Shown here: positions 5,734 through 57,829 of the stretch, piece by piece
Layout: each line of letters opens with the position of its first letter
Numbering within the stretch: position 1 is the first letter of the stretch
Assembly (NCBI GenBank): GCA_963674945.2
Contig: CAXXWQ010000004.1
Span: forward strand, 544,001-608,000
Reading direction: 5' to 3'
Origin: an uncultured Desulfosarcina sp.
GTDB taxonomy: Bacteria > Desulfobacterota > Desulfobacteria > Desulfobacterales > Desulfosarcinaceae
DNA: 64,000 nt
The notes under the pieces: model-generated
Database searches by the model: none
Seen by the model: only the letters and a program-made list of their open reading frames with translations
What the model was told of the DNA's origin: nothing
Position numbers and translations under genes: made by a program

Positions 5734-5859
5734 TGATTTTTATTGATCTTTGATAATATACTTTCATGGCCCGCCCCCTGTAGGGAGGAGCCATTGGCTA
5801 CTTCCCCCTTTAGAGGAGATTTTACAAGACCGTACCTTCTGGGTGTGAATAATTACTAT

Positions 5860-7467: not shown

Positions 7468-7611
7468 GCCTTTTACCTCAATTGAATAGTAGTATATATT
7501 ATTTCTTATATTTTTCATTTTGCAATACTTCTTTACAATAATTTACATCTATATGTTTTAATTGCGCTCCCACTCTAATACAATTATCCTATGTACCATA
7601 GAATAACAGAA

Positions 7612-8765
7612 TTAATTTTCCAGGAGATAAACCATATCATCAGTAACAATAAATCTGTCAATCTTGGTACCATCTTCCCGTTGTTGAATTTTAAACGTAT
7701 GAGTGCCGACTTCTAAATGGTAGACGGCCGGATTGGAGGCATCCCGCACATCGTCATAATCGCGTATGCTGACCATGTCCCATGTCCAGTTATCTGTTCC
7801 GCTCATTTTCGTGTGCCACGTCAGGCTCTCCCCGTCATCCATCGAGACAAAGAAGGAATCACTGGCAGCGTCATTGGCGATAACTCGTCCCCATATAATA
7901 TAGTCTCCTGCTGTAGAGACATCAAAAGTGTATTCGGCATAGCCAGCCTGCGAAGAAAAAGGATCGTCGTTTGTACCATTTCCATCCGGTACCACGATAC
8001 AGGTGCCACTGGATGCATTTGCATCTTCAGCAAACTCCATGGGAGTAACAATATCTCCTTCCTCAGCTTCCATCCAGATTTTTACATATTCGGTTTGTGA
8101 ATTCGAGTTCAAGGGATCCGCTCCTTCACTTACTTCTTGGCCGTCTGAAATCCCGTTACCATCGCCATCGGTATTGTAATGCTCAGTAGCGTAAATGTCT
8201 TTTTCTTCAGCATATTTCAGGCCATCATCATCGCTACCTACTGGTGCAACCCGTAGGATGGTGACCTGACAGGCATCTGAATTCATCATCCCGCCATCGT
8301 CTTTTATGACAAGTTGAAAGCTCAAGACAGTACTTTCGCTGTGAAGGTAGTTTTACTTCTTACGGGACTACTACAAAGGACCGATAATCCTGACGTTTGT
8401 GTCCATTGATAACTATAGATAGTCTCTTCGGGATCAATTGACTCTGAACCATCAAGTATACAGGTTTTTGTGGTCCCTGACCAAGCAGGTTTTTCAAAAT
8501 CGTAGGTTTCACCTTGGATGCGCATGTAAACGTGGTAGCCATCGGTGGAAGTGTTTTGATCATCATCCCAAGCAAGCGTAACCTGATTTGCGTTAAGATA
8601 ATTTGTGCAACATAAGATGAAACAAACAACACTGCAAAAAAAGATTAATCGCCAGTTAGGACACAAATGTCCACATTTCATTTTTTCGTTATGCCCTCTC
8701 AAATTCAGTTGTGATTCAGTTTTTACAATCCAATTGGAGATGAAACTTGAACAAGATCTGATCAA
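7612..8765 (-). pseudogene. Split, internally deleted secreted protein (Fn3 start, PKD-like domain, Asp-rich repeat, carbohydrate-binding-like C-terminus)
   Basis: 8322-8765 has VTLAWD then jumps to LDGSES..YQWTQTSG; the PKD-like domain continues (LSFQLVIKDDGG) in another frame at 8325. Confidence 0.65.
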
Positions 8766-22158: not shown

Positions 22159-22515
22159 TTACAAGAAAATCCGATGATCAGGTATATTCAGCGCCGCCGC
22201 CAGTTTCTGGGCTCGGTTTTTTCCAATAGACCGTTTTCCGTTCTCCATTTCGCTGATATGGCGCTGAGGGATTCCGGTTTTCTCCGAAAGTTTCTTTTGA
22301 GTCATCTCCTCTTTCTGCCTGGCGCCACGGAGCACAGTCCCGCTCTCGTTGCCTTCGAACTCGGAAAAAGCCTTTCTCCATGGGATCGAATCGGAAGTGT
22401 CCACGAATCCAAGGCGGGAAAGAGAGTCCACTGCCGCCTTTCTCTTTGATGCCGGCCCCTGGAAGGTCAGCACAATGATTTTATCAGTATGGCGCTTTTT
22501 CGTGCGTCCCAGCAT
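22159..22515 (-). CDS. XRE-family HTH antitoxin (HigA-like)
   Basis: LRGARQKEEMTQKKLSEKTGIPQRHISEMENGKRSIG; overlaps upstream toxin. Confidence 0.85.
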   Translation of the reverse strand: MLGRTKKRHTDKIIVLTFQGPASKRKAAVDSLSRLGFVDTSDSIPWRKAFSEFEGNESGTVLRGARQKEEMTQKKLSEKTGIPQRHISEMENGKRSIGKNRAQKLAAALNIPDHRIFL

Positions 22516-22765
22516 ATGTCACCTCGACAAGTCTTATGGTTCGGTCGCGCACTTCCCAAACCGCCACATAACAGGGGTTCCCCTTCTTGATATGGCAATG
22601 GTGCACGTCCTTTTCGAGTTTGCCGTAATTCGGCCAGTTACCCCGGATCGGGCCGCTTTGTTCGATCTCCGCCAACAGGTAGTAAAGCCTTTGCCGAACA
22701 TTTAACGGAAGCCGGGGAATCTGTTTTTCCGCCTTATGGTTTAACGTCACCGTCCACGGTATCAT
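22484..22765 (-). CDS. RelE/HigB-like toxin
   Basis: 93 aa, WTV..KAEKQ..LP, NWPNYGKL, HCHIKKG, EVTYAGTHEKAPY; toxin-first order. Confidence 0.75.
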   Translation of the reverse strand: MIPWTVTLNHKAEKQIPRLPLNVRQRLYYLLAEIEQSGPIRGNWPNYGKLEKDVHHCHIKKGNPCYVAVWEVRDRTIRLVEVTYAGTHEKAPY

Positions 22766-25553: not shown

Positions 25554-28009
25554 CAGAACACTGCATCTCCGGGAAAACTATGTGACACCTCCGGCATGAT
25601 TTGAGGTGCTGCAGCCATTTAGTTCGAATATCATTTGCAGCTCGGTACCGGGGTATTTTACCTGCGCACTGTTCAGATGCGCAAACAGTTGGCAAAGAGC
25701 CCGATTGGCCGCTGGGAACGAAGCGCCGTGCAATCGTATATTCAATTGCTGATTTTCAATATCGGGCAGTACATCGCCTTCGGTCTGGAACAGTGTCTGG
25801 AGAAGACTCCGTGCATCCGACGAGTTTACCGTCGGACCCGTGAGCAACCCAACCATTGCCGTCTCTGCACGATATGCAATCATACGAACCGTGTCCATCA
25901 GGCGTTTTCTGCCCGGTTGTAAACGTAAAAATTTATCTTTTGCTTCAAGTTCTCCCCACGTGATGTGTTTACTTGTCTGTTTTCGTTTTTCTTTCAACTC
26001 GCTGAGTTGATACTCCATCTTTTCGATTTCTTCTAACAGCTCGGCCTTTTTCTCTATCCACTTCTTAAACTTTACCGGTTTGTCTTCATTTTCAGGGTGA
26101 ATGGTCATCTCGGCAAAACAGGCACGACGATATCGTAGCTTGTTCTGCAACGAATTACGGGATTGATTCAATTGCCGCCAAACGGGGTTGATTACCCGTT
26201 CGGTATCAGGAAATTCAACGACACCATAATCTAAAAGCACATCGATATCAAAATGTTGCATCATATAGTTGAAAAAGTTTTCCTGACACCACCGGCTGAA
26301 CATGCGTGCTGCCAATTGAGTATGCGGCAAATCGAAAGCGGTGCTGATTACGCTGGTCTGGTGTCCGGAATCGGTCAGTTTTCGCACTTGTCGCATCCAT
26401 GTTGCACCCTTACCAGATCCCACCAAACTACCCATTTCGCAAAGCCGCATCTTCACCACCTCTTTGTTTGGCATCGCAACTTCATGCTCGGTGAACCAAT
26501 GCTCCGGCCATGATTCACCAGGATGCTTATGATACGTCATGCAGCCGATTCGATGGCGATCCCACATTTCCTTGAAGAATGCGGGACTATATCCTTCCCT
26601 GTCGAAAACAAGAACGAACCGGCATAAACATGGGTTCTCTTGTAGTTGCTGCAAACCGGGTTGATTCGGAACGTCTTGCAACAACCGGGGAACGATATCG
26701 TCTCTTAAAACCGCCAATAATCCAGGATCGATCTGCTTTTCGACGACAAAAAAAGGTCGGCCAATCGCATCGTTAACCCAATAGTCGGTAATGCCCCTCA
26801 TGCACAATCGTTCCCGGGACACGTAGCGGCGCGGTAGTCGGGTCAATTTTCCATGATAAACACGTACATGCCCGTCAACATAAAGCGCGCCAACCGATTC
26901 GGGCGCCTGTTCCATCCAGTATTTACCGAGGTATGCGGCCCACTTTTCCGCGCCGTGGTCTGCGCTCAACGCATCCATCTTGTAACGCAAACAGCGAACC
27001 TCCGGTGCACGATCCAAGCCCAATAACTTACCAAATTCTCCCGGAGCATGGCCTCGTATTTTTTCTGTCGTCTTGATCCTGCATAAGGCCATAAACGAAA
27101 GCAGCAACAAGACATGAAAGATCGTGTAATAGCCTTTGACTTGGCCGAGGAACTGTTTTGCGCCGGTAAACAACCCGTTTGCCACCAATGACGGTATCGC
27201 ACAAAGAACGCCTGCTTTGGGAACGTCCAGGCATCTGTCAAAACGAACCGGCGCACCAACCATTTTGCCCAATGATGCCAATATGCGTTCCCCGACTCGG
27301 TTGCAAGCCGTCCCCATACCATCGGCAGCAGCCATGTCGACCATGTCCCGATCTGATTTGGTTAGACACGGTTCACCAATCCTTGATTCGATTAACCGAC
27401 CATCATCTATAGCTTTGCGAAACGTATCGTATTTAATGCCAAGTTCCAGGGCGGCATCTTTTTTCGAGCACCCTTGATCCAGTAAACGTTGGGCTTGTTC
27501 AAGCACCTCAGGTTTGAAAACCTTGCCGCCGCGTCGTCCCCGCCGCTGAACGAAAAATGCCTCGGCGCCGCCGGACCTGAGTTTGTTCACGGATCGGATG
27601 ACATTGCTCTTGGATACGCCGAATGTGTTTTGGATATCGATCTGGCGGCAAGCTCCGGATTCAACCAGTTGGGCTGTTATCATCCGAAACATTCGTTGAT
27701 CGCCTTGTCTGTGAGAATAAATCGGAACGGTCGATAGAAAATAGGTCCAGGTCGTATCGTCACGAAATACACTGACAAGCCCGTTGATTTGTCTTGCACC
27801 GCGAGGAATAAGTGGTAGTATCTGTTGAGGCATGGCATCCTTTTCCTTTCATTTATCCGCCAAGATAATAAGGTTAAAGGTGCCATGTTCATTTTCCGGT
27901 TGCAATACCTTACCGGCCTGCTGGATTCAGACTCCTATCTTTCTGTTTTTCAACCACTTACATTATGTTTTGCTTGCCATATGCAACAATTAGGAAATCA
28001 AGTTTCCTG
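25554..28009 (-). mobile_element. Insertion sequence, 2456 bp, copy 1
   Basis: Near-identical to 55374-57829; CAG...CTG ends with imperfect TIR; 5-bp duplication ACATT at 25549-25553 and 28010-28014. Confidence 0.92.
25578..27833 (-). CDS. Large DDE-type transposase (751 aa, N-terminal HTHs, coiled coil)
   Basis: LYVDGH, VFDREGYS, RWCQENFF; sole long ORF of a duplicated element. Confidence 0.88.
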   Translation of the reverse strand: MPQQILPLIPRGARQINGLVSVFRDDTTWTYFLSTVPIYSHRQGDQRMFRMITAQLVESGACRQIDIQNTFGVSKSNVIRSVNKLRSGGAEAFFVQRRGRRGGKVFKPEVLEQAQRLLDQGCSKKDAALELGIKYDTFRKAIDDGRLIESRIGEPCLTKSDRDMVDMAAADGMGTACNRVGERILASLGKMVGAPVRFDRCLDVPKAGVLCAIPSLVANGLFTGAKQFLGQVKGYYTIFHVLLLLSFMALCRIKTTEKIRGHAPGEFGKLLGLDRAPEVRCLRYKMDALSADHGAEKWAAYLGKYWMEQAPESVGALYVDGHVRVYHGKLTRLPRRYVSRERLCMRGITDYWVNDAIGRPFFVVEKQIDPGLLAVLRDDIVPRLLQDVPNQPGLQQLQENPCLCRFVLVFDREGYSPAFFKEMWDRHRIGCMTYHKHPGESWPEHWFTEHEVAMPNKEVVKMRLCEMGSLVGSGKGATWMRQVRKLTDSGHQTSVISTAFDLPHTQLAARMFSRWCQENFFNYMMQHFDIDVLLDYGVVEFPDTERVINPVWRQLNQSRNSLQNKLRYRRACFAEMTIHPENEDKPVKFKKWIEKKAELLEEIEKMEYQLSELKEKRKQTSKHITWGELEAKDKFLRLQPGRKRLMDTVRMIAYRAETAMVGLLTGPTVNSSDARSLLQTLFQTEGDVLPDIENQQLNIRLHGASFPAANRALCQLFAHLNSAQVKYPGTELQMIFELNGCSTSNHAGGVT

Positions 28010-30743: not shown

Positions 30744-33002
30744 TCATCGACCGGACAGCACCTTGCAGTAAATCACCTTGCCGTCGTCCGGCGCATAGAA
30801 ATCTTTCAGCACCGCCTCCAGACGATAGCCACAGCTTTCGTAGAAGGCCCTTGTACTGGCGTATTGATCGCGCTGGGAGGTATCCACGTAGATGCGATCG
30901 CCGCCGCCCTTTCGGATCAGCGCCTCGGTCTCTGCAATCAGTCGGCGACCCAATCCCTTTCGATGGAACTCGGGATGGACGGCAATCCAATACAGATCGT
31001 AACTGTTCCGCGTGCAGGGAATGGGACCGTAACAGGTGTAGCCCACCAGCCGGCCATACTGCTCGGCGATCAGGAAATGGTAGCCGCTTTCATCCCCCCT
31101 GGTAAGGCGCTCCTGTACCAGTTCCTCGGCCACCGCCACTTCATCCGGGTGGAAAAAGCCGGTAAGATCGACAAGGCGCCTGACCCGTTCCGGATCACTC
31201 GCCGTGGGTTCTTGTCTCAACACGATGCCGTGCATCTGCTCTTTGTCCGGAGGATGTTTGGCTTGCGGATGAAAACCTGCGGCGGCCAACCCCTTAAAAA
31301 AGTGGAGGGCATTGCTGCCAAGGGTACGTACGCGATACCCCCCCTCCTGTACCAGTAAAGTGGGCAGCCCCAGTGCGCCGATACGCCGCCCGTTGGCCTC
31401 GAAATCCCTGGCGGTAAGCTGCCAGGTGCCGGTAGGGTCACTTTTTGCCGTATCCAGCCCGAAGGCCACCACCAGAAACTGGGGATTGAACTGCCGGATG
31501 CGACGCAGGGCTTTGTCCAATACCTTCAGGTAACCGTCGCCGTCCATTTTCTCAGGCAAGGGCAGGTTCATATTGAACCCCTCGCCTTCGCCCTCGCCGC
31601 GTTCTTCTTCGAATCCCGCAAAATAGGGGTAGGCAAAGGCGGGATGGCCATGCAACGAAACGGTGAGCACGTCGCTGCGCCGGTAGAAAATATCCTGCTG
31701 GCCGTTGCCATGATGATAGTCGATATCCAGGATGGCAACCTTTCCGTGGGCGCTCAGATATTGGGCGGCGATGGCGTTATTGTTGAAGTAGCAAAACCCC
31801 CCGAAGGCCCGGCGCTCTGCATGGTGGCCGGGCGGTCGCACCAGGGCGTAGGCCATTCGCCGGCCGGCCAGAATGTCGGCGGCAGCGGTCAGGGTGCAGT
31901 CAACCCCCTGGCGGGCGGCCGGATAGGCATTGCGGTTGATCGGGGTGAAGGTATCGATGCAGTAATATCCGGAAAGCACAGACGGCTCTTTGGGTGGTCG
32001 GGTCTTGTTGCGCAGCGGGAAGATGTAGGGATACAGTGATTTGCCCTCGGGTATCTCTTCACAGGCCCGGTGCAGGTAGTTTACCAAATCGCTGTCGTGA
32101 ACCGCGGTGATATGCTTTTCGGCAAAAGAGCGGGGTTTGATTTGGGCAAACAAACCGCTGGGCTGCAGCACTTTCAGGATTCTGCGCACCCGTACGGGCG
32201 CTTCCACATAGCCACGTTCGTGTATGTGGTGGATGTCATGATTGGCGTTGACCACCAGGGCGATTTGCTCTAAAGAGCGGCTTTCAACGGCTGTTCGCAC
32301 GGCCTCGGGTTTGACATACCGGAAAGGCCGCAGGTTCACCGGATCATCCCGAAAGGATGCCACCACCTTTTCCACATAGCGGGGGGGACAGTAGGCGGCG
32401 TATTTTCGCTCCAGCACGGCGCGCACCACTTTTCTGGCAAACCGCGGTCGCAATGGCTCGGGATGATCGAGCCCGTCGTACACCAGATGGGGCATGCAGG
32501 TGTCACCCGGCCTGACGGGACTCTCGTAGGCGGTATTGATGATCGGACGGGCCCCATAACGTTCATAGAAGCGGAGCCTGTCGCGATTCTGCTTAAGGAT
32601 CGCCGGATCATCGCAGGCATCGCGATCGTCGGGCAGACACTCGAAAAAGAGTCCCCTGGCATGAAGTTCCACGGCCTCGGCCCGCACGCTGTCATACAGG
32701 GCACTGCCCAGCCCGCCTCCGGTGGAACCTTTGGCGGTGGCAATCCAGTCCAGATAGCAAAAACCGATCACCGGTTCGTGCAGCACCATGGTGAATCCCA
32801 GTACGCGTCGACGCAATGTTTCGGCAACCAGCAAGATGGTCCGGAAACGCTGTTTGAAAGGATTACGCAGCTTTTCACTGATCTGGTCGATCTCTTCCGG
32901 CGGCACCTCGGAAAAGCGGGTCCGAAGGATCTGCTTCACCTGCTGCAACGCCTCCCGGTCCACAGACAGAATGTCATCGTAAATCCGGCGAATTTTAAGC
33001 AT
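30744..33002 (-). CDS. GNAT - HDAC-family (acetylpolyamine amidohydrolase-like) - GNAT fusion
   Basis: N-term YLDWIA..GGGLGSALY; central RPPGHHA, GFCYFNN, DIDYHHGNG, QEGGY; C-term LYWIAVHPEFHRKGLG, FYESCGY. Confidence 0.88.
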   Translation of the reverse strand: MLKIRRIYDDILSVDREALQQVKQILRTRFSEVPPEEIDQISEKLRNPFKQRFRTILLVAETLRRRVLGFTMVLHEPVIGFCYLDWIATAKGSTGGGLGSALYDSVRAEAVELHARGLFFECLPDDRDACDDPAILKQNRDRLRFYERYGARPIINTAYESPVRPGDTCMPHLVYDGLDHPEPLRPRFARKVVRAVLERKYAAYCPPRYVEKVVASFRDDPVNLRPFRYVKPEAVRTAVESRSLEQIALVVNANHDIHHIHERGYVEAPVRVRRILKVLQPSGLFAQIKPRSFAEKHITAVHDSDLVNYLHRACEEIPEGKSLYPYIFPLRNKTRPPKEPSVLSGYYCIDTFTPINRNAYPAARQGVDCTLTAAADILAGRRMAYALVRPPGHHAERRAFGGFCYFNNNAIAAQYLSAHGKVAILDIDYHHGNGQQDIFYRRSDVLTVSLHGHPAFAYPYFAGFEEERGEGEGEGFNMNLPLPEKMDGDGYLKVLDKALRRIRQFNPQFLVVAFGLDTAKSDPTGTWQLTARDFEANGRRIGALGLPTLLVQEGGYRVRTLGSNALHFFKGLAAAGFHPQAKHPPDKEQMHGIVLRQEPTASDPERVRRLVDLTGFFHPDEVAVAEELVQERLTRGDESGYHFLIAEQYGRLVGYTCYGPIPCTRNSYDLYWIAVHPEFHRKGLGRRLIAETEALIRKGGGDRIYVDTSQRDQYASTRAFYESCGYRLEAVLKDFYAPDDGKVIYCKVLSGR

Positions 33003-33010
33003 GACGAAAC

Positions 33011-34009
33011 CTATCGTATCGCCGAATCCACGATCCTTTTTATGGCATCGGTCATGGACAATCCGGCTTGGTGGACGGCGGCGGCAAAACCGGCATCCGG
33101 TGAAAGACAGGGATTGGCGTTAATTTCCAGGACCCAGGGCCGACCGTGACAGTCCACACGAAAATCTACGCGGGCATACCCCCGAAGACCCAGCAAATCC
33201 CAACATTCCAGGGACATATTCGTAAGCTGCACCAGAAGTTCCTCGTCTTTTGCATCGAAATCAAAACGACGCGGCGTGTGGTGATACGCATAGGAATTCT
33301 CGTCCCATTTGGCATTGTAGCCCACGATCCTGGCCTGACCGGAAGAATACCCCTCAAAGACAATTTCCGCCGGAGGTAACACCTGGGGGCCTTGCGGGCT
33401 GTCCAGCAAAGAGAGATTAAACTCCCGGCCCTCGATAAAGGCCTCGGCAAAACAGGATCCGCCCAGCATGGGTGCCCGCTGGACCATCAGGGTCTCCAGC
33501 AACCTTTCGGACGCGGCATCCACGATGGCTTCATCGTCAAGGCCGATAGAAGCGTGCTCCCAGACGGATTTGAGAATCCAGCGGCAAGGGGTGTCTCGCG
33601 GTCTTCCGAAGAGCCCAACACGCCAGGCGTCGGACGGAACGGTCCATGTCGGCGTCGGCAGACCCGCGCCGTCCAGCAAGGCCTTTGTGAGCAGCTTGTT
33701 GGAGGTCAGCATCATGGCTTCGGCACATGCCCCGGTGTAGGACAGCACCATGGCATCCAGCAGGGATGGAAACAGATGGATCAGCCGGCCCGTGCCGTCC
33801 AGGGACTCTACCAGATTGAAGACCAGATCGGGATCAATGGCGCGAAGTTCTCTCCGGACGCGGGAAAGATCCAGATCACAGGTCAGGCGGACCGCTTTGT
33901 GCCCGAGCGCCCGCAGATCATCGGTGACGGCATCGGCCTGAATCATAACGTCCTGTTCATCCACCGTACTGTCTGTTTGCACGGTATTATGAACCACAGC
34001 AACACGCAT
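33011..34009 (-). CDS. Ddl-like ATP-grasp ligase B
   Basis: FNLVES, KSVWEHASIG, FIEGREF, YNAKW, ARVDFR, LEINANP. Confidence 0.88.
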   Translation of the reverse strand: MRVAVVHNTVQTDSTVDEQDVMIQADAVTDDLRALGHKAVRLTCDLDLSRVRRELRAIDPDLVFNLVESLDGTGRLIHLFPSLLDAMVLSYTGACAEAMMLTSNKLLTKALLDGAGLPTPTWTVPSDAWRVGLFGRPRDTPCRWILKSVWEHASIGLDDEAIVDAASERLLETLMVQRAPMLGGSCFAEAFIEGREFNLSLLDSPQGPQVLPPAEIVFEGYSSGQARIVGYNAKWDENSYAYHHTPRRFDFDAKDEELLVQLTNMSLECWDLLGLRGYARVDFRVDCHGRPWVLEINANPCLSPDAGFAAAVHQAGLSMTDAIKRIVDSAIR

Positions 34010-35021
34010 AGGCTTGGCTCCTTGTCGAGGTCGTGGTGTGGCGAATGCGTTTTTGCGCAGACTGCACGATCCATTCGATCAACTGCGCATAGGTGATTTT
34101 AAGTTTGGTGCATAAAATCGGCAGGTCGGAATGTTCAGGATGCAATCCGGCCAGCGGATTGACCTCCATGAACTGTGGTGCACCTTCGGCGTCGCAGCGC
34201 ACATCGGCACGTCCCCCGTCCCTGCATCCCAGCACTTGCCAGGCTTTCAGCACGATGGCTTCGGCCTGCCGTACAACAGGGTCCGTTGCTGCATCCACGA
34301 GACGGTAGGCGACCAATTCCTCGCAGCGCTCCTTGTTCGTGTAAGAGTAAACCTGGGCTTCGGCTTTATCCAGTAAATGAACTTCCATGGTGCCCAGCAC
34401 CCTTGCCTCTCGACCCGTTCCCACAACGCCGATGGTAAACTCGCGGCCTGGTAGAAACGGCTCAACCAGGACCGGTTGGGAAAAGTCGGTCATCAGGTTG
34501 AGACAGGCGGCGCCCAACTCCTTTCTTTGGCGTACGATGGAGTCGGGCGTCACTCCCTTGCCCGTTCCCTCGGCCACGGGCTTGATAAAATAGGGCGGCC
34601 CAAAAGTTACCGCCTTCAGGTCCCCCGGTTCGCGAACCACCACGAAATCGGAAGTGGCCACACCGGCATCGCGCAGTACGTGCTTGGTCATGCCTTTGTG
34701 CAGGGTCAGGGCCATCACCAACGGATCGGAAAACGTGTACGCGATGCCGTAGACATCCAATATTGCGGGCACCTGGGCTTCCCGGCCGATGCCGTTCATT
34801 CCTTCGGCGATGTTGAAAACAAGGTCCCAGCGCCGTCCTGCAGCCAAGTGTTGGATCAGGTTGCGGGCATGGCCGATGCGTTCGGTGTGATAGCCCAAGG
34901 CGGCAAGCGTGCTTTCCAATGCCTCGACCGTGTCGTCGCGATCGAATTCGGCGGTCTCCTCCTCGCCGTACCCGGCAGCCAGGTATTCGGAGCGTAGATC
35001 ATACGTCAGGCCAATTTTCAT
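33987..35021 (-). CDS. Ddl-like ATP-grasp ligase A
   Basis: FNIAEG, KPVAEGTGKG, FLPGREF, GRADVR, MEVNPLAGL. Confidence 0.88.
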   Translation of the reverse strand: MKIGLTYDLRSEYLAAGYGEEETAEFDRDDTVEALESTLAALGYHTERIGHARNLIQHLAAGRRWDLVFNIAEGMNGIGREAQVPAILDVYGIAYTFSDPLVMALTLHKGMTKHVLRDAGVATSDFVVVREPGDLKAVTFGPPYFIKPVAEGTGKGVTPDSIVRQRKELGAACLNLMTDFSQPVLVEPFLPGREFTIGVVGTGREARVLGTMEVHLLDKAEAQVYSYTNKERCEELVAYRLVDAATDPVVRQAEAIVLKAWQVLGCRDGGRADVRCDAEGAPQFMEVNPLAGLHPEHSDLPILCTKLKITYAQLIEWIVQSAQKRIRHTTTSTRSQAYACCCGS

Positions 35022-35580
35022 TTTCTTTTGCCTCCCAGAAAATTTCACGGTAGAGCATACGGTGCCATTGGACTGCTTGTTGCCGGGCGACGCCGGCGAT
35101 TCCCTTCTCGAAGGAAGGCATCGCCTGCATTCTGGTTGCGCTGCATTCGCCGTCCCATTGCCCGCTCAGGCCTTCGGCAGTGTAAAGATGGGGATACAAC
35201 CGGCACACCAGTGGCCGGGCGGTCAACGACAGCGAACATCCCGAAGGGCCGAGGAAAAGGCAGTCGCCGTCCGCCAGCCATTTGAGAACTCGTCGCCTGC
35301 CATCGGTGCGAAAGACGTACCGATGCCACAGCGGATCATCCTCCTGGTCGGCATAGTCCGCGTGAACGCCGACACGGTATTCATAAAAGTCACAAAACCC
35401 GCCGTGGCGTTGGATCCGTTGGCAATCACCTGCGGTAACGTAAATATCGTGCTGCTGACAGCAGGTCCGGCCCTGACTGGCGCAGCGTATGCAAACGTCT
35501 CCCCGGTCCGGATTTTCAACAGCCGATAGCGTGTTGCCGGGTATCGTTGCACTCGCCATATCTGTGTTTGTTGGATTCAT
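34999..35580 (-). CDS. YkgJ-family cysteine-cluster (Zn/Fe-chelating) protein
   Basis: C..C.....CC, CLFL...GC, RPLVCRLYP. Confidence 0.85.
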   Translation of the reverse strand: MNPTNTDMASATIPGNTLSAVENPDRGDVCIRCASQGRTCCQQHDIYVTAGDCQRIQRHGGFCDFYEYRVGVHADYADQEDDPLWHRYVFRTDGRRRVLKWLADGDCLFLGPSGCSLSLTARPLVCRLYPHLYTAEGLSGQWDGECSATRMQAMPSFEKGIAGVARQQAVQWHRMLYREIFWEAKENENWPDV

Positions 35581-35615
35581 CCTCACCGCCCTCCTTTACC
35601 GGCGGTGGTGTCTGA

Positions 35616-36923
35616 TTAGAACGAATCTGGATAGCGAAAGGTTTTGCCTTCATAATTCCGCAGCAGGATATCGCATCCGTCGCGTCCCTGGCAGTAATCG
35701 GGCGTCAATGGTATCTTTCCGCCGCCGCCAGGTGCGTCGATGACATAGGTCGGTACGGCGTACCCACTTGTAAACCCCCGCAATCCTTGGATGATTTCCA
35801 GCCCCTTGTCCACCGGTGTGCGGAAATGAGAAGAACCGGAAATGGGATCGCACTGGTAAAGATAGTAGGGCCTGACCCGCATGCGCAGCAATTGGTGCAC
35901 TAGGCGGCCCATGGTTTCCACCGAATCGTTGATATCCTTGAGCAGAACGGTCTGTGATCCCAATGGGATTCCGGCGTTGGCCAATCGCTGGCAGGCAAGC
36001 GAGGCTTCGGGCGTGCACTCGTCCGGATGGATGAAGTGAAGACTCATCCACAACGGATGATGGCGCTTGAGCATGCGCACCAGTTGCGGCGTAATTCGCT
36101 GGGGCAGGACGGCCGGAATCTTGGTGCCGATCCGAATGATCTCCACATGTTTGATCTGCCGCAACCGGGTCAGCAGCCAATCCAGTCGAGAATCGCTCAA
36201 GGTCAGCGGGTCGCCGCCGGAAAGCAGAACATCCCGGATCATGGGAGTACGACGAATGTACTCCAGGGCCTGTTCCAAGCGCTTGCGATTGAAAAAGAGG
36301 CGACCGTGCCCCACCATGCGGGAACGGGTGCAATAGCGGCAATAGGTGGAGCAGAAATCCAGGGTCAGGAACAACACCCGATCCGGATAGCGATGGACCA
36401 GACCCGTAACAGGACTTTGATGATCTTCGCCCAGGGGATCATCGGCCTCTTCCGGCATGCGGATCAACTCGTTGATTGTGGGCACAACGGTTCGGCGCAG
36501 GGGATAGGCCACACCGTGGTCAACGAGCAGACTGAGGAAATAGGGTGTGATCGCCAGGGGCAACCTGGTTTGCAAGCCCGCCATTGCCGCATTCTCATCG
36601 CTGCTCAGCGTTAAAAACCGTTCCAGCTGTCTTGTCGTGCACACCCGGTTGGCGATCTGCCATTGCCAGGAGTTCCATTGCTGGTCGCTGATGTTGGGGT
36701 AATGGATTTTTAAAAACTTGCGCCTTCGAGAAATCGGGTAGTTGGGAACCGGTCTGATGGATAAATGGTTTGGTCGCGGCCGTGTAGCCGACAATGGCGA
36801 GGCAACCGCGCAATCGGTCGCCTGACTTGGAGGCTCCTCTTCCACTTCCGTGGAGACCTCCATGGTAGTAGTGGACTTTTGGTCCTGATTCGGGTTGGAT
36901 TGACGACGGGGAGGCAAACGCAT
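35616..36923 (-). CDS. KamA-family radical SAM aminomutase (lysine 2,3-aminomutase-like)
   Basis: DPLGE, HRYPDR, CSTYCRYC, SGGDPL, YQCD, YVIDAPGGGGKIP; start uncertain (36923 or 36863). Confidence 0.92.
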   Translation of the reverse strand: MRLPPRRQSNPNQDQKSTTTMEVSTEVEEEPPSQATDCAVASPLSATRPRPNHLSIRPVPNYPISRRRKFLKIHYPNISDQQWNSWQWQIANRVCTTRQLERFLTLSSDENAAMAGLQTRLPLAITPYFLSLLVDHGVAYPLRRTVVPTINELIRMPEEADDPLGEDHQSPVTGLVHRYPDRVLFLTLDFCSTYCRYCTRSRMVGHGRLFFNRKRLEQALEYIRRTPMIRDVLLSGGDPLTLSDSRLDWLLTRLRQIKHVEIIRIGTKIPAVLPQRITPQLVRMLKRHHPLWMSLHFIHPDECTPEASLACQRLANAGIPLGSQTVLLKDINDSVETMGRLVHQLLRMRVRPYYLYQCDPISGSSHFRTPVDKGLEIIQGLRGFTSGYAVPTYVIDAPGGGGKIPLTPDYCQGRDGCDILLRNYEGKTFRYPDSF

Positions 36924-36998
36924 CGTTTGGATACTCCTTTTCTTTGCTCGGTTCGGTTTCCAGGAAAAACAACCTGTTTTTCTAATGCCAAGCACTTA

Positions 36999-37013
36999 AC
37001 AAAATGCATGCCA
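36999..37013 (-). promoter_or_regulatory. sigma54 promoter of the aminomutase operon
   Basis: TGGCAT-GCATT-TTGT (one deviation at -12). Confidence 0.5.
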
Positions 37014-37409: not shown

Positions 37410-37775
37410 TCAATATCCAACGGCCTTTTCGTACCGTTCACGGCGTATCTTGCAGTCGATGCAATATCGGGTTACCGGCCTTGCCTTGAGACGCTCCAGG
37501 GAGATGGGCTCTTCGCAATCTTCACAGATTCCGTATGACCCTTCTTCGATGGCGCTCAGGCTGTATTTGATCTTTTTAATCAATCGACTTTCCCGGCTCC
37601 GAATTCGATACTTACTGTTCCGATCCAGCTCCTGCGTGGCCCGATCCAGAGGATCGGGTTCACTCTCAAGGGTTGTGGAAATAAGCTCATAAACCGTTGT
37701 CCCGGCATCGTCGAGCAACCGGTTCAATTCATTTTCAAGCAACTGACGAAAGTAATTCAGATCTTTTCGATTCAT
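37410..37775 (-). CDS. dksA: DksA/TraR-family C4 zinc-finger protein
   Basis: PDPLDRA tip, RSRESRLIKKI, YGICEDC, RLKARP, CIDCK. Confidence 0.88.
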   Translation of the reverse strand: MNRKDLNYFRQLLENELNRLLDDAGTTVYELISTTLESEPDPLDRATQELDRNSKYRIRSRESRLIKKIKYSLSAIEEGSYGICEDCEEPISLERLKARPVTRYCIDCKIRRERYEKAVGY

Positions 37776-37835
37776 AGCAACCCTCCGGAAATTCCTTCAA
37801 AAAAGACCCAACGAACAACGACACGAAAGCCTGAC

Positions 37836-37850
37836 GCAATATTTGCGCCA
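37836..37850 (-). promoter_or_regulatory. sigma54 promoter of dksA-like gene
   Basis: TGGCGC-AAATA-TTGC. Confidence 0.7.
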
Positions 37851-38065
37851 TATCTATTTTGATTTACTTCCCTGCCAATGGAGCAAATCGAAACACCGGT
37901 TCTTATAGGTGGTCGTTGATCGGCTGCTTTCCGGTAAGGAGCGATGCACCCGGAACCATCCGAGGCGAGTGAAACACGGAGGTGTGTTACCTCAATGGCT
38001 CACATTATGCAGGCATATTCGAGGCCTGCGTACCATTGCGGCTGTCGACGTGACGATTTGTATGG

Positions 38066-38722
38066 TTGCACCCCTATCGCGCATGCCGAAAAAAGCTTTC
38101 CGATATCGGGTTGGCGGAGAAAAAGAAGTTGGGAATCTTCTCTGAAATGACGGCGCTGTATGCCCACATCGATCAGGTGGTGGCAGAATTTCAATTGAGG
38201 AGCGGACTTCGTTGTCCACCGGGGTGCGGAAAATGTTGTACGACCTCCGATGTCCAGGTGACCGTTCTGGAAATGCTTCCCATGGCCCATGAAATGTTTT
38301 GCGACGGTACGGCAGACCAATGGCTGGAGCGTCTGTCGGTACCTTCCGTGTCGGGGAGATGCGTTTTATACAAGGTCCATGGGACAGAAAACTTGGCCGG
38401 ACACTGCGGCTATTACAAATGGCGGCCGGTAGTGTGTCGATTGTTCGGCTTTGCCGCGGTACGAGATCGGACCGGGTCCAAGACACTGGCGGTGTGTCGG
38501 CACATCCGCCAGAACAACCCGAAAGTCGCCCTGGTCGCAATGGCCATGGCCGAAGAAGCGCCCTGTTTCGTGAAGTACGGCACCGAAGTCTTTGGGCTCG
38601 ATCCAGTGTTGGGTTTCCGTTTGATGCCCATCAATACGGCGCTGCACCAGGCCATCGAACGTCTGGGGATTGTGAGGTCATATGCATATCGGGAGAGTTT
38701 GCGGGACAATCCGGCAGCGTAG
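38066..38722 (+). CDS. YkgJ-family cysteine-cluster protein
   Basis: CPPGCGKCC, CVLY, CGYYKWRPVVCRLFG; start uncertain (38147 possible). Confidence 0.85.
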   Translation: MHPYRACRKKLSDIGLAEKKKLGIFSEMTALYAHIDQVVAEFQLRSGLRCPPGCGKCCTTSDVQVTVLEMLPMAHEMFCDGTADQWLERLSVPSVSGRCVLYKVHGTENLAGHCGYYKWRPVVCRLFGFAAVRDRTGSKTLAVCRHIRQNNPKVALVAMAMAEEAPCFVKYGTEVFGLDPVLGFRLMPINTALHQAIERLGIVRSYAYRESLRDNPAA

Positions 38723-48595: not shown

Positions 48596-50152
48596 TTACA
48601 CGCCTTTTTGTCCGTCCGGTACGGTTTTCCATACGATTTCATATAATTCCTTACGTCGACTTTGCAGATTGCGGACACTTCCCTGTTGCCGAAGCTCTTT
48701 CAGCAGATCCAGGTCCAGATCCACCATCAGCGTCATCTCCGTGTTGGGTGTCGCTTCTGCGGCAATGGCATCATGGGGGAACGCAAAATCCGATGGCGTG
48801 AAGACTGCCGACTGCGAGTACTGGATATCCATGTTTTCGATTTTCGGCAGGTTGCCCACGCTGCCGGAAATGGCCACATAGCATTCGTTCTCGATTGCCC
48901 TGGCCTGGGCGCAACGGCGAACCCGGAGGTAGGCGTTTTTCGTGTCGGTCCAAAAGGGTACGAATAGGATCGTCATTCCCTGGTCCACAAGATAACGTGC
49001 CAATTCGGGGAATTCCACGTCATAGCAGATGAGGATGCCGATTTTGCCGATATCGGTGTTGAATATTCGGATTTCATCCCCCCCTTTTAGTCCCCAGTAT
49101 TGAAATTCGTCCGGTGTAATATGCAGCTTGTACTGGGCACCCCAGGTGCCGTCCCGGCGGCATAAATAGGACACATTGTACAGATTGCCGTCTTTGAGCA
49201 GGGGCATGCTGCCCGCGATGATATTGGTGTTATAGGAAATGGCCATATTGACGAAGGCGGACTGGATTTTTTCGGTATATTCCGCCAGTGACCGCATGGC
49301 TTCGGCGGTGTTTTCCTGGTTAAAGTTTTTCAACAGCGGTGCATTGAGCAACTCCGGAAACAGCACCAGATCCGAATTATATCCCGCAACCGCATCGACG
49401 AAGAATTCCGCCTGCTGCAAAAAATCGTCCAGGTTGTTGAAGGGCCGCATCTGCCATTGTACGACACCGATTCTGGGGTAGGATTTCCTGCCGCCGAAAA
49501 GCGTAGGCCGTTTCTCATAATGGATATTGTTCCACTCCATCAGGACCCCGTAAGCTTCGGACTGGGTGTCTTCGGGAATGTAATTTTTAACGATGTTTTT
49601 GATGTGAAAATCATTTGACAGCTGAAAGGACAACACCGGGTCGTAAATTTCGTTTGCCTTAACTTTTCTGATATATTCGGAAGGCGACAGTTTGCCGGAA
49701 TGTTCGGCATACCCCGGAATTCGCCCGCCGAAGATAATGCTTTTCAGGTTCAGCTTCTCGCACAACTCCTTGCGGGCATCGTAGAGTCGTCTTCCAAGAC
49801 GCAGCCCGCGGTAGTCCGGATCGACAAATATGTCGACGCCGTAAAGTGTATTTCCATCCGGATCGTGCGCCGACATCTTCCCCCCGCCGACAACATCGTT
49901 ATACGTATGACGTCTTTCGAAATCCTCTGCGTTCACAAGAACGGAGAGGGCTGCGGCAACAACCTTTCCGTTATCCTCAATACAAATCTGTCCTTCGGGA
50001 AAATGACCGATCAGTGTGTCGTATTCATGGGGCTGCCATGCGCCGCCCATCCCCTTGTACACCCGGTCCATAATTTCTTTGATATAAGAATAGTCTTCGT
50101 GTTGTAATCCGCGAAGTACCAGTTTGTATTCGGTCTGTTCCGTTTTTGTCAT
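48596..50152 (-). CDS. GNAT acetyltransferase / carbon-nitrogen hydrolase (nitrilase superfamily) fusion
   Basis: VDPDYRGLRLGRRLY; FPE, QYKLH, ICYDVEFPE catalytic triad motifs. Confidence 0.92.
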   Translation of the reverse strand: MTKTEQTEYKLVLRGLQHEDYSYIKEIMDRVYKGMGGAWQPHEYDTLIGHFPEGQICIEDNGKVVAAALSVLVNAEDFERRHTYNDVVGGGKMSAHDPDGNTLYGVDIFVDPDYRGLRLGRRLYDARKELCEKLNLKSIIFGGRIPGYAEHSGKLSPSEYIRKVKANEIYDPVLSFQLSNDFHIKNIVKNYIPEDTQSEAYGVLMEWNNIHYEKRPTLFGGRKSYPRIGVVQWQMRPFNNLDDFLQQAEFFVDAVAGYNSDLVLFPELLNAPLLKNFNQENTAEAMRSLAEYTEKIQSAFVNMAISYNTNIIAGSMPLLKDGNLYNVSYLCRRDGTWGAQYKLHITPDEFQYWGLKGGDEIRIFNTDIGKIGILICYDVEFPELARYLVDQGMTILFVPFWTDTKNAYLRVRRCAQARAIENECYVAISGSVGNLPKIENMDIQYSQSAVFTPSDFAFPHDAIAAEATPNTEMTLMVDLDLDLLKELRQQGSVRNLQSRRKELYEIVWKTVPDGQKGV

Positions 50153-55373: not shown

Positions 55374-57829
55374 CAGGAAACTTGATTTCCTAATTGTTGC
55401 ATATGGCAAGCAAAACATAATGTAAGTGGTTGAAAAACAGAAAGATAGGAGTCTGAATCCAGCAGGCCGGTAAGGTATTGCAACCGGAAAATGAACATGG
55501 CACCTTTAACCTTATTATCTTGGCGGATAAATGAAAGGAAAAGGATGCCATGCCTCAACAGATACTACCACTTATTCCTCGCGGTGCAAGACAAATCAAC
55601 GGGCTTGTCAGTGTATTTCGTGACGATACGACCTGGACCTATTTTCTATCGACCGTTCCGATTTATTCTCACAGACAAGGCGATCAACGAATGTTTCGGA
55701 TGATAACAGCCCAACTGGTTGAATCCGGAGCTTGCCGCCAGATCGATATCCAAAACACATTCGGCGTATCCAAGAGCAATGTCATCCGATCCGTGAACAA
55801 ACTCAGGTCCGGCGGCGCCGAGGCATTTTTCGTTCAGCGGCGGGGACGACGCGGCGGCAAGGTTTTCAAACCTGAGGTGCTTGAACAAGCCCAACGTTTA
55901 CTGGATCAAGGGTGCTCGAAAAAAGATGCCGCCCTGGAACTTGGCATTAAATACGATACGTTTCGCAAAGCTATAGATGATGGTCGGTTAATCGAATCAA
56001 GGATTGGTGAACCGTGTCTAACCAAATCAGATCGGGACATGGTCGACATGGCTGCTGCCGATGGTATGGGGACGGCTTGCAACCGAGTCGGGGAACGCAT
56101 ATTGGCATCATTGGGCAAAATGGTTGGTGCGCCGGTTCGTTTTGACAGATGCCTGGACGTTCCCAAAGCAGGCGTTCTTTGTGCGATACCGTCATTGGTG
56201 GCAAACGGGTTGTTTACCGGCGCAAAACAGTTCCTCGGCCAAGTCAAAGGCTATTACACGATCTTTCATGTCTTGTTGCTGCTTTCGTTTATGGCCTTAT
56301 GCAGGATCAAGACGACAGAAAAAATACGAGGCCATGCTCCGGGAGAATTTGGTAAGTTATTGGGCTTGGATCGTGCACCGGAGGTTCGCTGTTTGCGTTA
56401 CAAGATGGATGCGTTGAGCGCAGACCACGGCGCGGAAAAGTGGGCCGCATACCTCGGTAAATACTGGATGGAACAGGCGCCCGAATCGGTTGGCGCGCTT
56501 TATGTTGACGGGCATGTACGTGTTTATCATGGAAAATTGACCCGACTACCGCGCCGCTACGTGTCCCGGGAACGATTGTGCATGAGGGGCATTACCGACT
56601 ATTGGGTTAACGATGCGATTGGCCGACCTTTTTTTGTCGTCGAAAAGCAGATCGATCCTGGATTATTGGCGGTTTTAAGAGACGATATCGTTCCCCGGTT
56701 GTTGCAAGACGTTCCGAATCAACCCGGTTTGCAGCAACTACAAGAGAACCCATGTTTATGCCGGTTCGTTCTTGTTTTCGACAGGGAAGGATATAGTCCC
56801 GCATTCTTCAAGGAAATGTGGGATCGCCATCGAATCGGCTGCATGACGTATCATAAGCATCCTGGTGAATCATGGCCGGAGCATTGGTTCACCGAGTATG
56901 AAGTTGCGATGCCAAACAAAGAGGTGGTGAAGATGCGGCTTTGCGAAATGGGTAGTTTGGTGGGATCTGGTAAGGGTGCAACATGGATGCGACAAGTGCG
57001 AAAACTGACCGATTCCGGACACCAGACCAGCGTAATCAGCACCGCTTTCGATTTGCCGCATACTCAATTGGCAGCACGCATGTTCAGCCGGTGGTGTCAG
57101 GAAAACTTTTTCAACTATATGATGCAACATTTTGATATCGATGTGCTTTTAGATTATGGTGTCGTTGAATTTCCTGATACCGAACGGGTAATCAACCCCG
57201 TTTGGCGGCAATTGAATCAATCCCGTAATTCGTTGCAGAACAAGCTACGATATCGTCGTGCCTGTTTTGCCGAGATGACCATTCACCCTGAAAATGAAGA
57301 CAAACCGGTAAAGTTTAAGAAGTGGATAGAGAAAAAGGCCGAGCTGTTAGAAGAAATCGAAAAGATGGAGTATCAACTCAGCGAGTTGAAAGAAAAACGA
57401 AAACAGACAAGTAAACACATCACGTGGGGAGAACTTGAAGCAAAAGATAAATTTTTACGTTTACAACCGGGCAGAAAACGCCTGATGGACACGGTTCGTA
57501 TGATTGCATATCGTGCAGAGACGGCAATGGTTGGGTTGCTCACGGGTCCGACGGTAAACTCGTCGGATGCACGGAGTCTTCTCCAGACACTGTTCCAGAC
57601 CGAAGGCGATGTACTGCCCGATATTGAAAATCAGCAATTGAATATACGATTGCACGGCGCTTCGTTCCCAGCGGCCAATCGGGCTCTTTGCCAACTGTTT
57701 GCGCATCTGAACAGTGCGCAGGTAAAATACCCCGGTACCGAGCTGCAAATGATATTCGAACTAAATGGCTGCAGCACCTCAAATCATGCCGGAGGTGTCA
57801 CATAGTTTTCCCGGAGATGCAGTGTTCTG
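55374..57829 (+). mobile_element. Insertion sequence, 2456 bp, copy 2
   Basis: Inverted copy of 25554-28009; flanks AACCT / AAGAT do not match. Confidence 0.92.
55550..57805 (+). CDS. Large DDE-type transposase, copy 2
   Basis: 751 aa; differs from copy 1 at one residue seen (FTEY vs FTEH). Confidence 0.88.
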   Translation: MPQQILPLIPRGARQINGLVSVFRDDTTWTYFLSTVPIYSHRQGDQRMFRMITAQLVESGACRQIDIQNTFGVSKSNVIRSVNKLRSGGAEAFFVQRRGRRGGKVFKPEVLEQAQRLLDQGCSKKDAALELGIKYDTFRKAIDDGRLIESRIGEPCLTKSDRDMVDMAAADGMGTACNRVGERILASLGKMVGAPVRFDRCLDVPKAGVLCAIPSLVANGLFTGAKQFLGQVKGYYTIFHVLLLLSFMALCRIKTTEKIRGHAPGEFGKLLGLDRAPEVRCLRYKMDALSADHGAEKWAAYLGKYWMEQAPESVGALYVDGHVRVYHGKLTRLPRRYVSRERLCMRGITDYWVNDAIGRPFFVVEKQIDPGLLAVLRDDIVPRLLQDVPNQPGLQQLQENPCLCRFVLVFDREGYSPAFFKEMWDRHRIGCMTYHKHPGESWPEHWFTEYEVAMPNKEVVKMRLCEMGSLVGSGKGATWMRQVRKLTDSGHQTSVISTAFDLPHTQLAARMFSRWCQENFFNYMMQHFDIDVLLDYGVVEFPDTERVINPVWRQLNQSRNSLQNKLRYRRACFAEMTIHPENEDKPVKFKKWIEKKAELLEEIEKMEYQLSELKEKRKQTSKHITWGELEAKDKFLRLQPGRKRLMDTVRMIAYRAETAMVGLLTGPTVNSSDARSLLQTLFQTEGDVLPDIENQQLNIRLHGASFPAANRALCQLFAHLNSAQVKYPGTELQMIFELNGCSTSNHAGGVT

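Follow-up and report, generated by a model that had tools for sequence, protein, structure and literature searches.

The operon at positions 30744..37013 of the window, the 64,000-nucleotide stretch of an uncultured Desulfosarcina sp. that was analysed here, raises the question of what is made by a gene set that combines an aminomutase, two ligases of the D-alanine-D-alanine ligase (Ddl) fold, acetyltransferases and a deacetylase.

Organization and conservation of the operon

Five minus-strand ORFs were located in this region, encoding in order KamA, a CxxCxxCC (YkgJ-like) protein, ligase 1, ligase 2 and a GNAT–deacetylase–GNAT fusion, with gaps of about 30, -23, -23 and +8 nt between successive genes. 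The following features could be assigned:

36998..37013, minus strand: sigma54-type (-24/-12) promoter-like site TGGCATGCATTTTGTT, 10/12 match to the consensus
35616..36923, minus strand: KamA-type radical SAM/PLP aminomutase, likely a lysine 2,3-aminomutase; ATG start with RBS, Pfam Radical_SAM and LAM_C
34999..35580, minus strand: CxxCxxCC (YkgJ-like) putative metal/Fe-S protein, accessory; ATG start (alternative GTG start possible at 35586), PF03692
33987..35021, minus strand: ligase 1, Ddl-fold ATP-grasp; Pfam Dala_Dala_lig_C
33011..34009, minus strand: ligase 2, Ddl-fold ATP-grasp; Pfam Dala_Dala_lig_C
30744..33002, minus strand: GNAT–deacetylase–GNAT fusion; Pfam Hist_deacetyl (266-571) and Acetyltransf_1 (633-726)
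32298..33002, minus strand: N-terminal GNAT-like domain of the fusion, accessory; ESM Atlas, weak PDB support
31263..32267, minus strand: deacetylase domain of the fusion, acetylpolyamine-amidohydrolase-type Zn enzyme, accessory; PDB matches, conserved catalytic residues
30744..31232, minus strand: C-terminal GNAT of the fusion, the core acetyltransferase of the operon; match to 2R7H

KamA residues are numbered from a reading that starts one codon before the ATG, at 36926. The ORF coordinates and Pfam domains confirm the five co-oriented, overlapping or abutting genes reported by the first-pass annotation, and Pfam, ESM Atlas and a motif check also support its description of two different Ddl-like ligases, YkgJ and a triple fusion with intact HDAC motifs. 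The sigma54-type promoter that it placed ahead of the operon is upheld as well, since a site with at least 10/12 matches lies upstream of KamA at 20 of 66 related loci, compared with 22 of 1320 shuffles; the same TTGTT variant as in the window recurs at three loci (L001, L004 and L008).

The neighbourhood, suspected earlier of being widespread, is co-conserved across taxa. A core consisting of KamA, ligase 1, ligase 2 and the C-terminal GNAT is present at 44 of 56 well-flanked loci, and this four-gene set was found again in many bacterial phyla. The C-terminal GNAT occurs at 52 of 62 loci with downstream sequence, and in 13 loci it is fused to ligase 2. Sampling of 201 genomes from the host phylum turned up ligase 1 in 70, with relatives in 39/151 and 19/151 genomes of two other phyla; Desulfosarcina variabilis (L010) is one of the cultured carriers. 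KamA at E<=1e-120 accompanies it in 51 of the 70 ligase 1 genomes, compared with 4 of the 131 others; one of these four carries the operon minus ligase 1. Many Myxococcota encode a tandem double ligase with no adjoining KamA, GNAT or ligase 2. The deacetylase and the YkgJ-like gene are accessory: the former is present at 21 of 56 well-flanked loci, a GNAT-deacetylase occurs anywhere in the genome for only 10 of 70 ligase genomes, and the latter is found at 18 of 73 loci with upstream sequence. The N-terminal GNAT travels together with the deacetylase. Because the deacetylase is accessory, the acetyl "eraser" is optional, and its earlier description as built-in has to be dropped. No paper describing the operon was found in the literature.

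Properties of the encoded enzymes

KamA aligns with 2A5H at E 1e-132, the alignment stopping at residue 366 of 416. Its scores stay below the cut-offs of the lysine model TIGR03820 (478 bits, cut-off 525), the EpmB model TIGR03821 (237, cut-off 369) and the glutamate or arginine 2,3-aminomutase models TIGR04368 and TIGR04468 (422 and 370, cut-offs 650 and 600). The cluster motif CxxxCxxC (C192/C196/C199) and the PLP lysine K404 are kept in 135/135 sequences. The two Asp motifs of a beta-lysine-type enzyme, YQCD and VIDAP, are present as first described: equivalents of 2A5H Asp293, Asp330 and Arg134, substrate contacts of lysine 2,3-aminomutase, are found in 134/135, 134/135 and 135/135 KamA sequences, and with Lys337 included conservation is 134-135 of 135. 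On these sequence grounds the operon enzyme likely converts lysine to beta-lysine. Cys268 is replaced, a conserved acidic EEPP motif occurs in the N-terminal tail (46/81, compared with 61/3700 shuffles), and the C-terminal multimerisation domain of lysine 2,3-aminomutase, described in the available part of PMC2821294, is missing.

Neither ligase is a cell-wall Ddl, in agreement with the earlier assignment. Both lie far below the TIGR01205 cut-off of 246 (113 and 85 bits), a canonical Ddl scoring 306 bits is coded elsewhere in the same genome, and the tree places the two as sisters (support 0.99), separate from canonical Ddl. The three-domain ATP-grasp Ddl fold is present with its catalytic Lys/Glu/Asn/Arg (TM 0.74), and the ATP, Mg and oxyanion residues are kept in both. 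The GGxSxE motif is absent from both, as had been noted, but its Glu (Ddl E15) persists in ligase 1 (184/186). Residue roles in both ligases are carried over from Ddl. In ligase 1 the equivalents of E15 and S281 are kept, together with the changes H63->E73, E68->R80 and L282->D299; since the Arg at E68 is invariant and co-occurs with H63->E, the H63->E change may reflect a compensated salt bridge rather than a site for binding amines. Ligase 2 carries H63->E68, Y216->W235, S281->A306 and L282->G307. Among its relatives the S281/L282 positions hold A/S and G, and the Trp at Y216 is invariant (159/159), which suggests an open acceptor site without the acceptor-carboxylate clamp of Ddl.

For the N-terminal GNAT no Pfam match was obtained; ESM Atlas gave 0.94, with all of the 10 best named matches in the same family or clan, and PDB support was weak. 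The C-terminal GNAT matches the structural-genomics entry 2R7H at orthologue level (E 2e-42). The top five PDB matches of the deacetylase all belong to the acetylpolyamine amidohydrolases, with E values from 1e-75 to 1e-63 (1e-39 for HDAH), all aligning from about residue 266 and including the insert before the GYY motif. The Zn ligands, His dyad and catalytic Tyr are conserved, with H393, H394, D428, H430 and D517 in 44/44 sequences and Y556 in 43/44. E106 and E117, the acidic residues with which the M. ramosa enzyme binds polyamines, are not identical in the deacetylase by alignment, and its invariant D350 matches 9GKZ instead. Membership of the acetylpolyamine amidohydrolase clade leaves the substrate unfixed.

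Proposed product and alternative explanations

A link to polyamines could be found in part of the phylum. In 12 of 70 genomes, drawn from 5 families, a pyruvoyl arginine decarboxylase gene precedes the ligases by no more than 2.5 kb, and the ligases concerned fall into two separate subclades of the tree. Agmatinase and decarboxylase beside the ligases both exceed their profile cut-offs, and a deoxyhypusine-synthase-like gene comes first in the operon at 5 of 14 arginine-decarboxylase loci. All 12 linked genomes keep KamA at E<=1e-120, and stand-alone KamA copies in such genomes have the short tail of the operon type (9/9 examined). At one locus (L078) GNAT and agmatinase form a single ORF; this single case may reflect a lost stop codon, and no such fusion was seen among 120 listed of 392 longer GNAT homologues. 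In the host genome, the genes for SAM decarboxylase, spermidine synthase and an Orn/Arg-family decarboxylase sit together in a cluster. Two further clues to a polyamine acceptor are the closeness of the deacetylase to acetylpolyamine amidohydrolases and the missing carboxylate clamp of ligase 2. Against this, polyamine genes are found by the ligases in none of the other 51 ligase genomes of the phylum, at 0/20 Myxococcota and 0/18 Acidobacteriota loci, at 7 of 80 metagenome loci and nowhere within the 64-kb window. The linkage is lineage-limited, and the 12 linked genomes are kin. Of the acceptors first suggested for beta-lysine (peptide, polyamine or protein), the evidence favours a polyamine, not decisively; that a beta-lysine-type aminomutase supplies two ligases and an acetylase is supported.

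Our tentative reading, put at slightly below an even chance, is that the operon product is an acetyl-switched beta-lysyl-polyamine amide. KamA would convert L-lysine to beta-lysine, and ligase 1 would activate this to an acyl phosphate and couple it to an amino acid, which may be another beta-lysine, given that the carboxylate-binding Ser is kept. Ligase 2 would then transfer the acyl group to an amine, the acceptor being putrescine or spermidine in the Desulfosarcina host and homospermidine or agmatine in the lineages with arginine decarboxylase. Acetylation of a free amine would fall to the C-terminal GNAT, frequently found as a fusion with ligase 2, and the GNAT-deacetylase module, where present, would undo this. 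The likely role would be a sigma54-controlled, nitrogen-rich polycation pool, its charge hidden when it serves storage or stress protection and exposed again when needed. This reading builds on genes, folds, residues and co-occurrence; the KamA-free double ligases of many Myxococcota and the possible salt bridge in ligase 1 speak against it.

That the product serves instead as a compatible solute, an NAGGN-like N-acetylated beta-lysine dipeptide or amide without polyamine, is a possibility we consider rather unlikely. AblB was not found in the host genome, N-acetyl-beta-lysine is already known as an osmolyte (PMC3543383, available part), and the 13 ligase 2-GNAT fusions are similar to Ngg, which in the accessible text of PMC8070244 acetylates and ligates glutamine to give an osmolyte. 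However, the original argument from neighbouring mscS, corA and chaperone genes fails: of 7 MscS matches in the genome none lies inside the 64-kb window, and near related operons corA occurs at 0/80, dnaJ at 2/80 and dksA at 1/80 loci. No osmotic-stress gene is co-conserved with the operon, records of carriers span fen, bog, groundwater and digester plus marine isolates, and both the decarboxylase/agmatinase linkage and the clamp loss of ligase 2 would be left unexplained. Attachment of beta-lysine to a macromolecule (protein or envelope polymer), with GNAT and deacetylase writing and erasing an acetyl mark, appears improbable. It could draw on the open acceptor site of ligase 2, on the EEPP motif of the KamA tail as a docking or target site, and on RimK and LysX, ATP-grasp enzymes that modify proteins and are listed among the structural fold relatives of the ligases.

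There is only a small chance that arginine or a different basic amino acid is the substrate of the aminomutase and that the pathway builds up a guanidino compound, the decarboxylase linkage then reflecting shared arginine chemistry. The linked genes are indeed those of arginine decarboxylase and agmatinase, and KamA falls under the lysine cut-off and is C-terminally short like the 351-position arginine aminomutase model; yet its score is higher on the lysine model (478) than on the arginine model (370), and every lysine-binding position matches 2A5H. Extra cell-wall D-Ala-D-X ligases in a cluster without common pathway would fit the fold and the automatic database annotation as D-alanine-D-alanine ligase, but this reading is very improbable, being largely refuted by the scores, the tree, the conserved gene order and the fusions.

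The broader form of the polyamine amide proposal is somewhat doubtful: widespread, undescribed conjugated polyamines, namely (di-)beta-lysyl amides of putrescine, spermidine or homospermidine, made by a paralogous Ddl-fold ligase pair acting as one unit and tuned in charge by acetylase and deacetylase. If true, it would give anaerobes a way to build long-chain polycations through amide bonds, in about one third of Desulfobacterota genomes and many other phyla, with an undescribed class of cellular metabolite. Beta-lysine, which enters fermentation, EF-P modification, the AblAB osmolyte and antibiotics, would gain a further fate; polyamine biology would gain a new branch, with the Ddl fold working on non-amino-acid amines, and the orphan 2R7H a pathway. 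Databases call these enzymes D-Ala-D-Ala ligases or generic acetyltransferases, and the polyamine clue narrows an open-ended substrate search to a small assay matrix.

Comparison with known systems

Glutathionylspermidine synthetase/amidase joins an acyl group to a polyamine through an ATP-grasp enzyme paired with an opposing hydrolase, and the best model of the operon works alike. The operon ligases differ in being Ddl-family enzymes with beta-lysine as the likely donor, and the hydrolase would take off acetyl and not the amide; Gsp synthetase and CHAP amidase domains are absent, Pfam assigning the ligases only Ddl/GARS-type families. Clustering with polyamine synthesis genes is a further likeness in that model, hss and glutathionylspermidine synthetase genes being physically clustered according to the available part of PMC9992855. 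The homospermidine route of SpeY (PMC13625781, in part) uses the trio of decarboxylase, agmatinase and DHS homologue that also heads the operon in some relatives, whereas this trio is missing from the 64-kb window; "ligase" and "D-alanine" occur nowhere in the main text of that paper.

AblA/AblB, producing N-epsilon-acetyl-beta-lysine, likewise have their lysine 2,3-aminomutase and GNAT encoded by a single operon (PMC3543383 and PMC2821294, available parts). As first proposed, the present operon is distinct, with two core ligases, a non-AblB GNAT and a KamA without the C-terminal domain; the AblB model TIGR03827 gave 0 matches in the 98.7% complete genome, where control models matched. Ngg/AsnO, which form the acetylated dipeptide NAGGN with an acetyltransferase and a peptide-bond former, are paralleled by the ligase 2-GNAT fusions (PMC8070244, accessible text), but the operon has a radical SAM aminomutase and two ligases and no asparagine-synthase-like amidotransferase, AsnO being absent among scanned window ORFs and recurrent neighbours. 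With Ddl/Van the operon ligases share fold and catalytic residues; they differ in a changed substrate pocket and do not lie in a cell-wall cluster.

EpmA/EpmB, responsible for EF-P beta-lysylation, also use a C-terminally short aminomutase feeding beta-lysine to a ligase, EpmA being a tRNA-synthetase paralogue. The separation from this system stands, given the TIGR03821 score of KamA. The reported absence of EpmA is correct for the locus but not for the genome, in which EpmA is encoded on a different contig with a separate short KamA paralogue.

Organization and conservation of the operon

Five head-to-tail genes were read as ORFs on the minus strand (30744-36923), the distances between neighbours being about 30, -23, -23 and +8 nt; genes 1-4 each have a ribosome-binding site in front. 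Based on Pfam, the first gene encodes a KamA-type radical SAM enzyme and the second a CxxCxxCC protein; genes for two Ddl-like ligases follow, and the last specifies a 752-aa fusion in which a deacetylase domain precedes a C-terminal GNAT. Residues 1-235 of the fusion were assigned to a second GNAT with high confidence by language-model features, and PDB profile matches agree weakly with this call.

37013-36998, minus strand: sigma54-type site, upstream of KamA
35616-36923, minus strand: KamA
33987-35021, minus strand: ligase 1
33011-34009, minus strand: ligase 2
30744-33002, minus strand: GNAT-deacetylase-GNAT fusion

Scored at a minimum of 10 of 12 consensus positions, a sigma54-type site was found upstream of KamA in 20/66 related loci vs 22/1320 shuffles. 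The first-pass description of five co-oriented, abutting or overlapping genes behind such a site is borne out. The operon is preceded at 37410-38722 by a dksA gene and another CxxCxxCC gene; they occur near 1/80 and 2/80 related operons and are therefore unconserved there.

The titles of the best 80 of 559 related genome loci include Desulfobacterota, Bacteroidota, Planctomycetota, Acidobacteriota, Myxococcota, Bacillota, Krumholzibacteriota and others. Among the 56 loci with enough flanking sequence on both sides, 44 combine KamA with the two ligases and the C-terminal GNAT, 21 have the deacetylase as well, and nine carry all five genes, in line with the suspected conservation of the neighbourhood across taxa. 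Among all loci collected, 13 join the C-terminal GNAT to ligase 2 and 26 join it to the GNAT-deacetylase in one protein. No recurrent neighbours beyond clade-level synteny were found among the related loci. The corA and chaperone genes once proposed as companions are, like dksA, not co-conserved (corA near 0/80, dnaJ 2/80 and dksA 1/80 of the best 80 of 559), and none of the genome's seven mscS matches, one of which had been expected nearby, falls in the window.

Within the window's phylum, ligase 1 was detected at E<=1e-40 in 77/201 sampled genomes, reduced to 70 after seven with only distant matches were dropped. KamA at E<=1e-120 is present in 51/70 of these vs 4/131 others, and one of the latter four carries the operon minus ligase 1. 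At L233, a related locus (5014-8322, genome G072), KamA and a ligase 2-GNAT fusion have no ligase 1 in between. In two further phyla represented among the related loci, 39/151 and 19/151 genomes gave a match.

Properties of the enzymes and relation to known systems

KamA aligns with the Clostridium lysine 2,3-aminomutase 2A5H (E 1e-132). The cluster cysteines, PLP lysine, Arg134 and two aspartates are retained in 134-135 of 135 KamA sequences; we take Arg134 and the aspartate pair to be substrate contacts, the aspartates binding the epsilon-amine. KamA scores 478 with the lysine, 422 with the glutamate, 370 with the arginine and 237 with the EpmB model, every cut-off of these specific models being missed. 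AblB was not found in the window's genome. EpmA is absent from the locus, as had been noted, but is encoded at another place in the genome, which also has a second short KamA outside the operon. KamA is without the C-terminal domain that, according to PMC2821294, separates classical lysine 2,3-aminomutases from EpmB/YjeK. In the decarboxylase-linked genomes described below, the nine stand-alone KamA copies examined have the operon-type short tail, 31-38 residues past GGGK. The N-terminal tail carries an acidic di-proline motif, [ED][ED]PP (36825-36840), located about 55 residues ahead of the first conserved W..W.WQ in 46/81 KamAs vs 61/3700 shuffles, and present in only 4/52 of a distant KamA set. 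It may serve for docking; alternatively, ribosomes may stall there in an EF-P-dependent manner, linking KamA translation to beta-lysylated EF-P. Elsewhere in the genome, KamA-like sequence occurs twice within a single 836-aa protein (G000 C3:1062689-1065199), next to a PotABCD-like ABC transporter.

Compared with solved structures in PDB, the deacetylase has acetylpolyamine amidohydrolases as its five best matches (E 1e-75 to 1e-63), and its metal ligands are intact in 44/44 sequences. The GNAT-deacetylase is linked to the pathway yet optional, since 10 of 12 full-length matches lie in ligase-1 genomes and only six inside the operon. Of the "built-in eraser" claimed earlier, the association with the operon holds, while its being built in does not, as the 21/56 count indicates.

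Each operon enzyme belongs to a known family. The operon fell outside the AblAB, EpmAB, Ddl, Gsp and NAGGN systems. Its logic resembles that of Ngg and of glutathionylspermidine synthetase/amidase; clustering of glutathionylspermidine synthetase with hss is described in PMC9992855. No paper on the operon was found in the literature searched, and its putative product is undescribed.

Linkage to polyamine genes and the proposed pathway

In 12/70 ligase genomes, the ligases have a co-oriented pyruvoyl arginine decarboxylase gene at most 2.5 kb upstream; the 12 all belong to one 19-genome subfamily but come from 5 families, and in the tree these loci split into two separate subclades. The decarboxylase is found together with agmatinase, and in 5/14 decarboxylase-linked loci the first gene of the operon is deoxyhypusine-synthase-like. 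According to PMC13625781, these three genes make up the SpeY homospermidine route; the word "ligase" does not occur in its main text. Donor and acceptor genes coexist rather than being alternatives, because KamA is present at E<=1e-120 in 12/12 such genomes; in two, it stands between decarboxylase and ligases. At L078, a locus that shares the window's subfamily, a single ORF covers the C-terminal GNAT and an agmatinase. The window's genome has no pyruvoyl decarboxylase match; one of its clusters holds SAM decarboxylase, spermidine synthase and an Orn/Arg-family decarboxylase. In several decarboxylase-type operons (L108, L127-L129, L144, L160, L215) a SAM methyltransferase follows the GNAT (best match PmtA-like, 141 bits, under cut-off), a gene order that hints at an N-methylated product variant.

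Against this linkage, an adjacent decarboxylase was found in 0 of the 51 ligase genomes outside this subfamily and in 7/80 metagenome loci, many of them short. No decarboxylase, agmatinase or DHS-like neighbours occurred in the 20 and 18 fetched loci of Myxococcota and Acidobacteriota, and no agmatinase fusion among 120 listed of 392 longer GNAT homologues. Many Myxococcota loci have a tandem double ligase with KamA or GNAT not beside it, which suggests that the ligases act as a pair and that the family may also have several substrates. In the Myxococcota loci L253-L269, two Ddl-like domains stand in tandem within proteins of ~680 aa, and neither KamA nor ligase 2 nor a GNAT adjoins these; at L094 a similar protein follows KamA and precedes GCS2 and peptidase C26 genes.

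In the pathway we tentatively favour, at somewhat short of an even chance, KamA would make beta-lysine, ligase 1 would activate and extend it, ligase 2 would amidate the product onto a polyamine, the GNAT would cap it and the accessory module, where present, would uncap it. The main rival, a polyamine-free acetylated dipeptide osmolyte resembling NAGGN (PMC8070244), is clearly less probable. Modification of a protein or the envelope by beta-lysine is unlikely. Marginally more doubtful still is an arginine-based variant. That the ligases, Ddl-like in fold, are cell-wall Ddl is very improbable.

Other modules

Beside the operon in three genomes (L025 12621-16708, L078 511-4735, L097 709-4652) lies a second orphan module of SAM-decarboxylase-like, GNAT, ATP-grasp and PLP decarboxylase genes, three of which occur elsewhere in the window's genome (G000 C3:1028643-1032062). 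In a separate conserved trio (L102 8005-12532, L103, L104), a 715-aa Ddl-like ligase that is extended far beyond its C-terminal domain stands with gamma-glutamyltranspeptidase and N-formylglutamate amidohydrolase. In the window, inverted Transposase_29 copies (25578-27833, minus; 55550-57805, plus; 750/751 residues identical), each with a divergent partner ORF or neighbour of 158-162 aa, flank a 28-kb block that includes the operon. A 93-aa ORF, for which Pfam gives no match, and the HTH_3 gene after it (22159-22765, minus) look like a RelE/HigB-type toxin-antitoxin pair, and a GNAT-carbon-nitrogen hydrolase fusion (48596-50152, minus) gives an acetylase/amidase pairing 11 kb from the operon.
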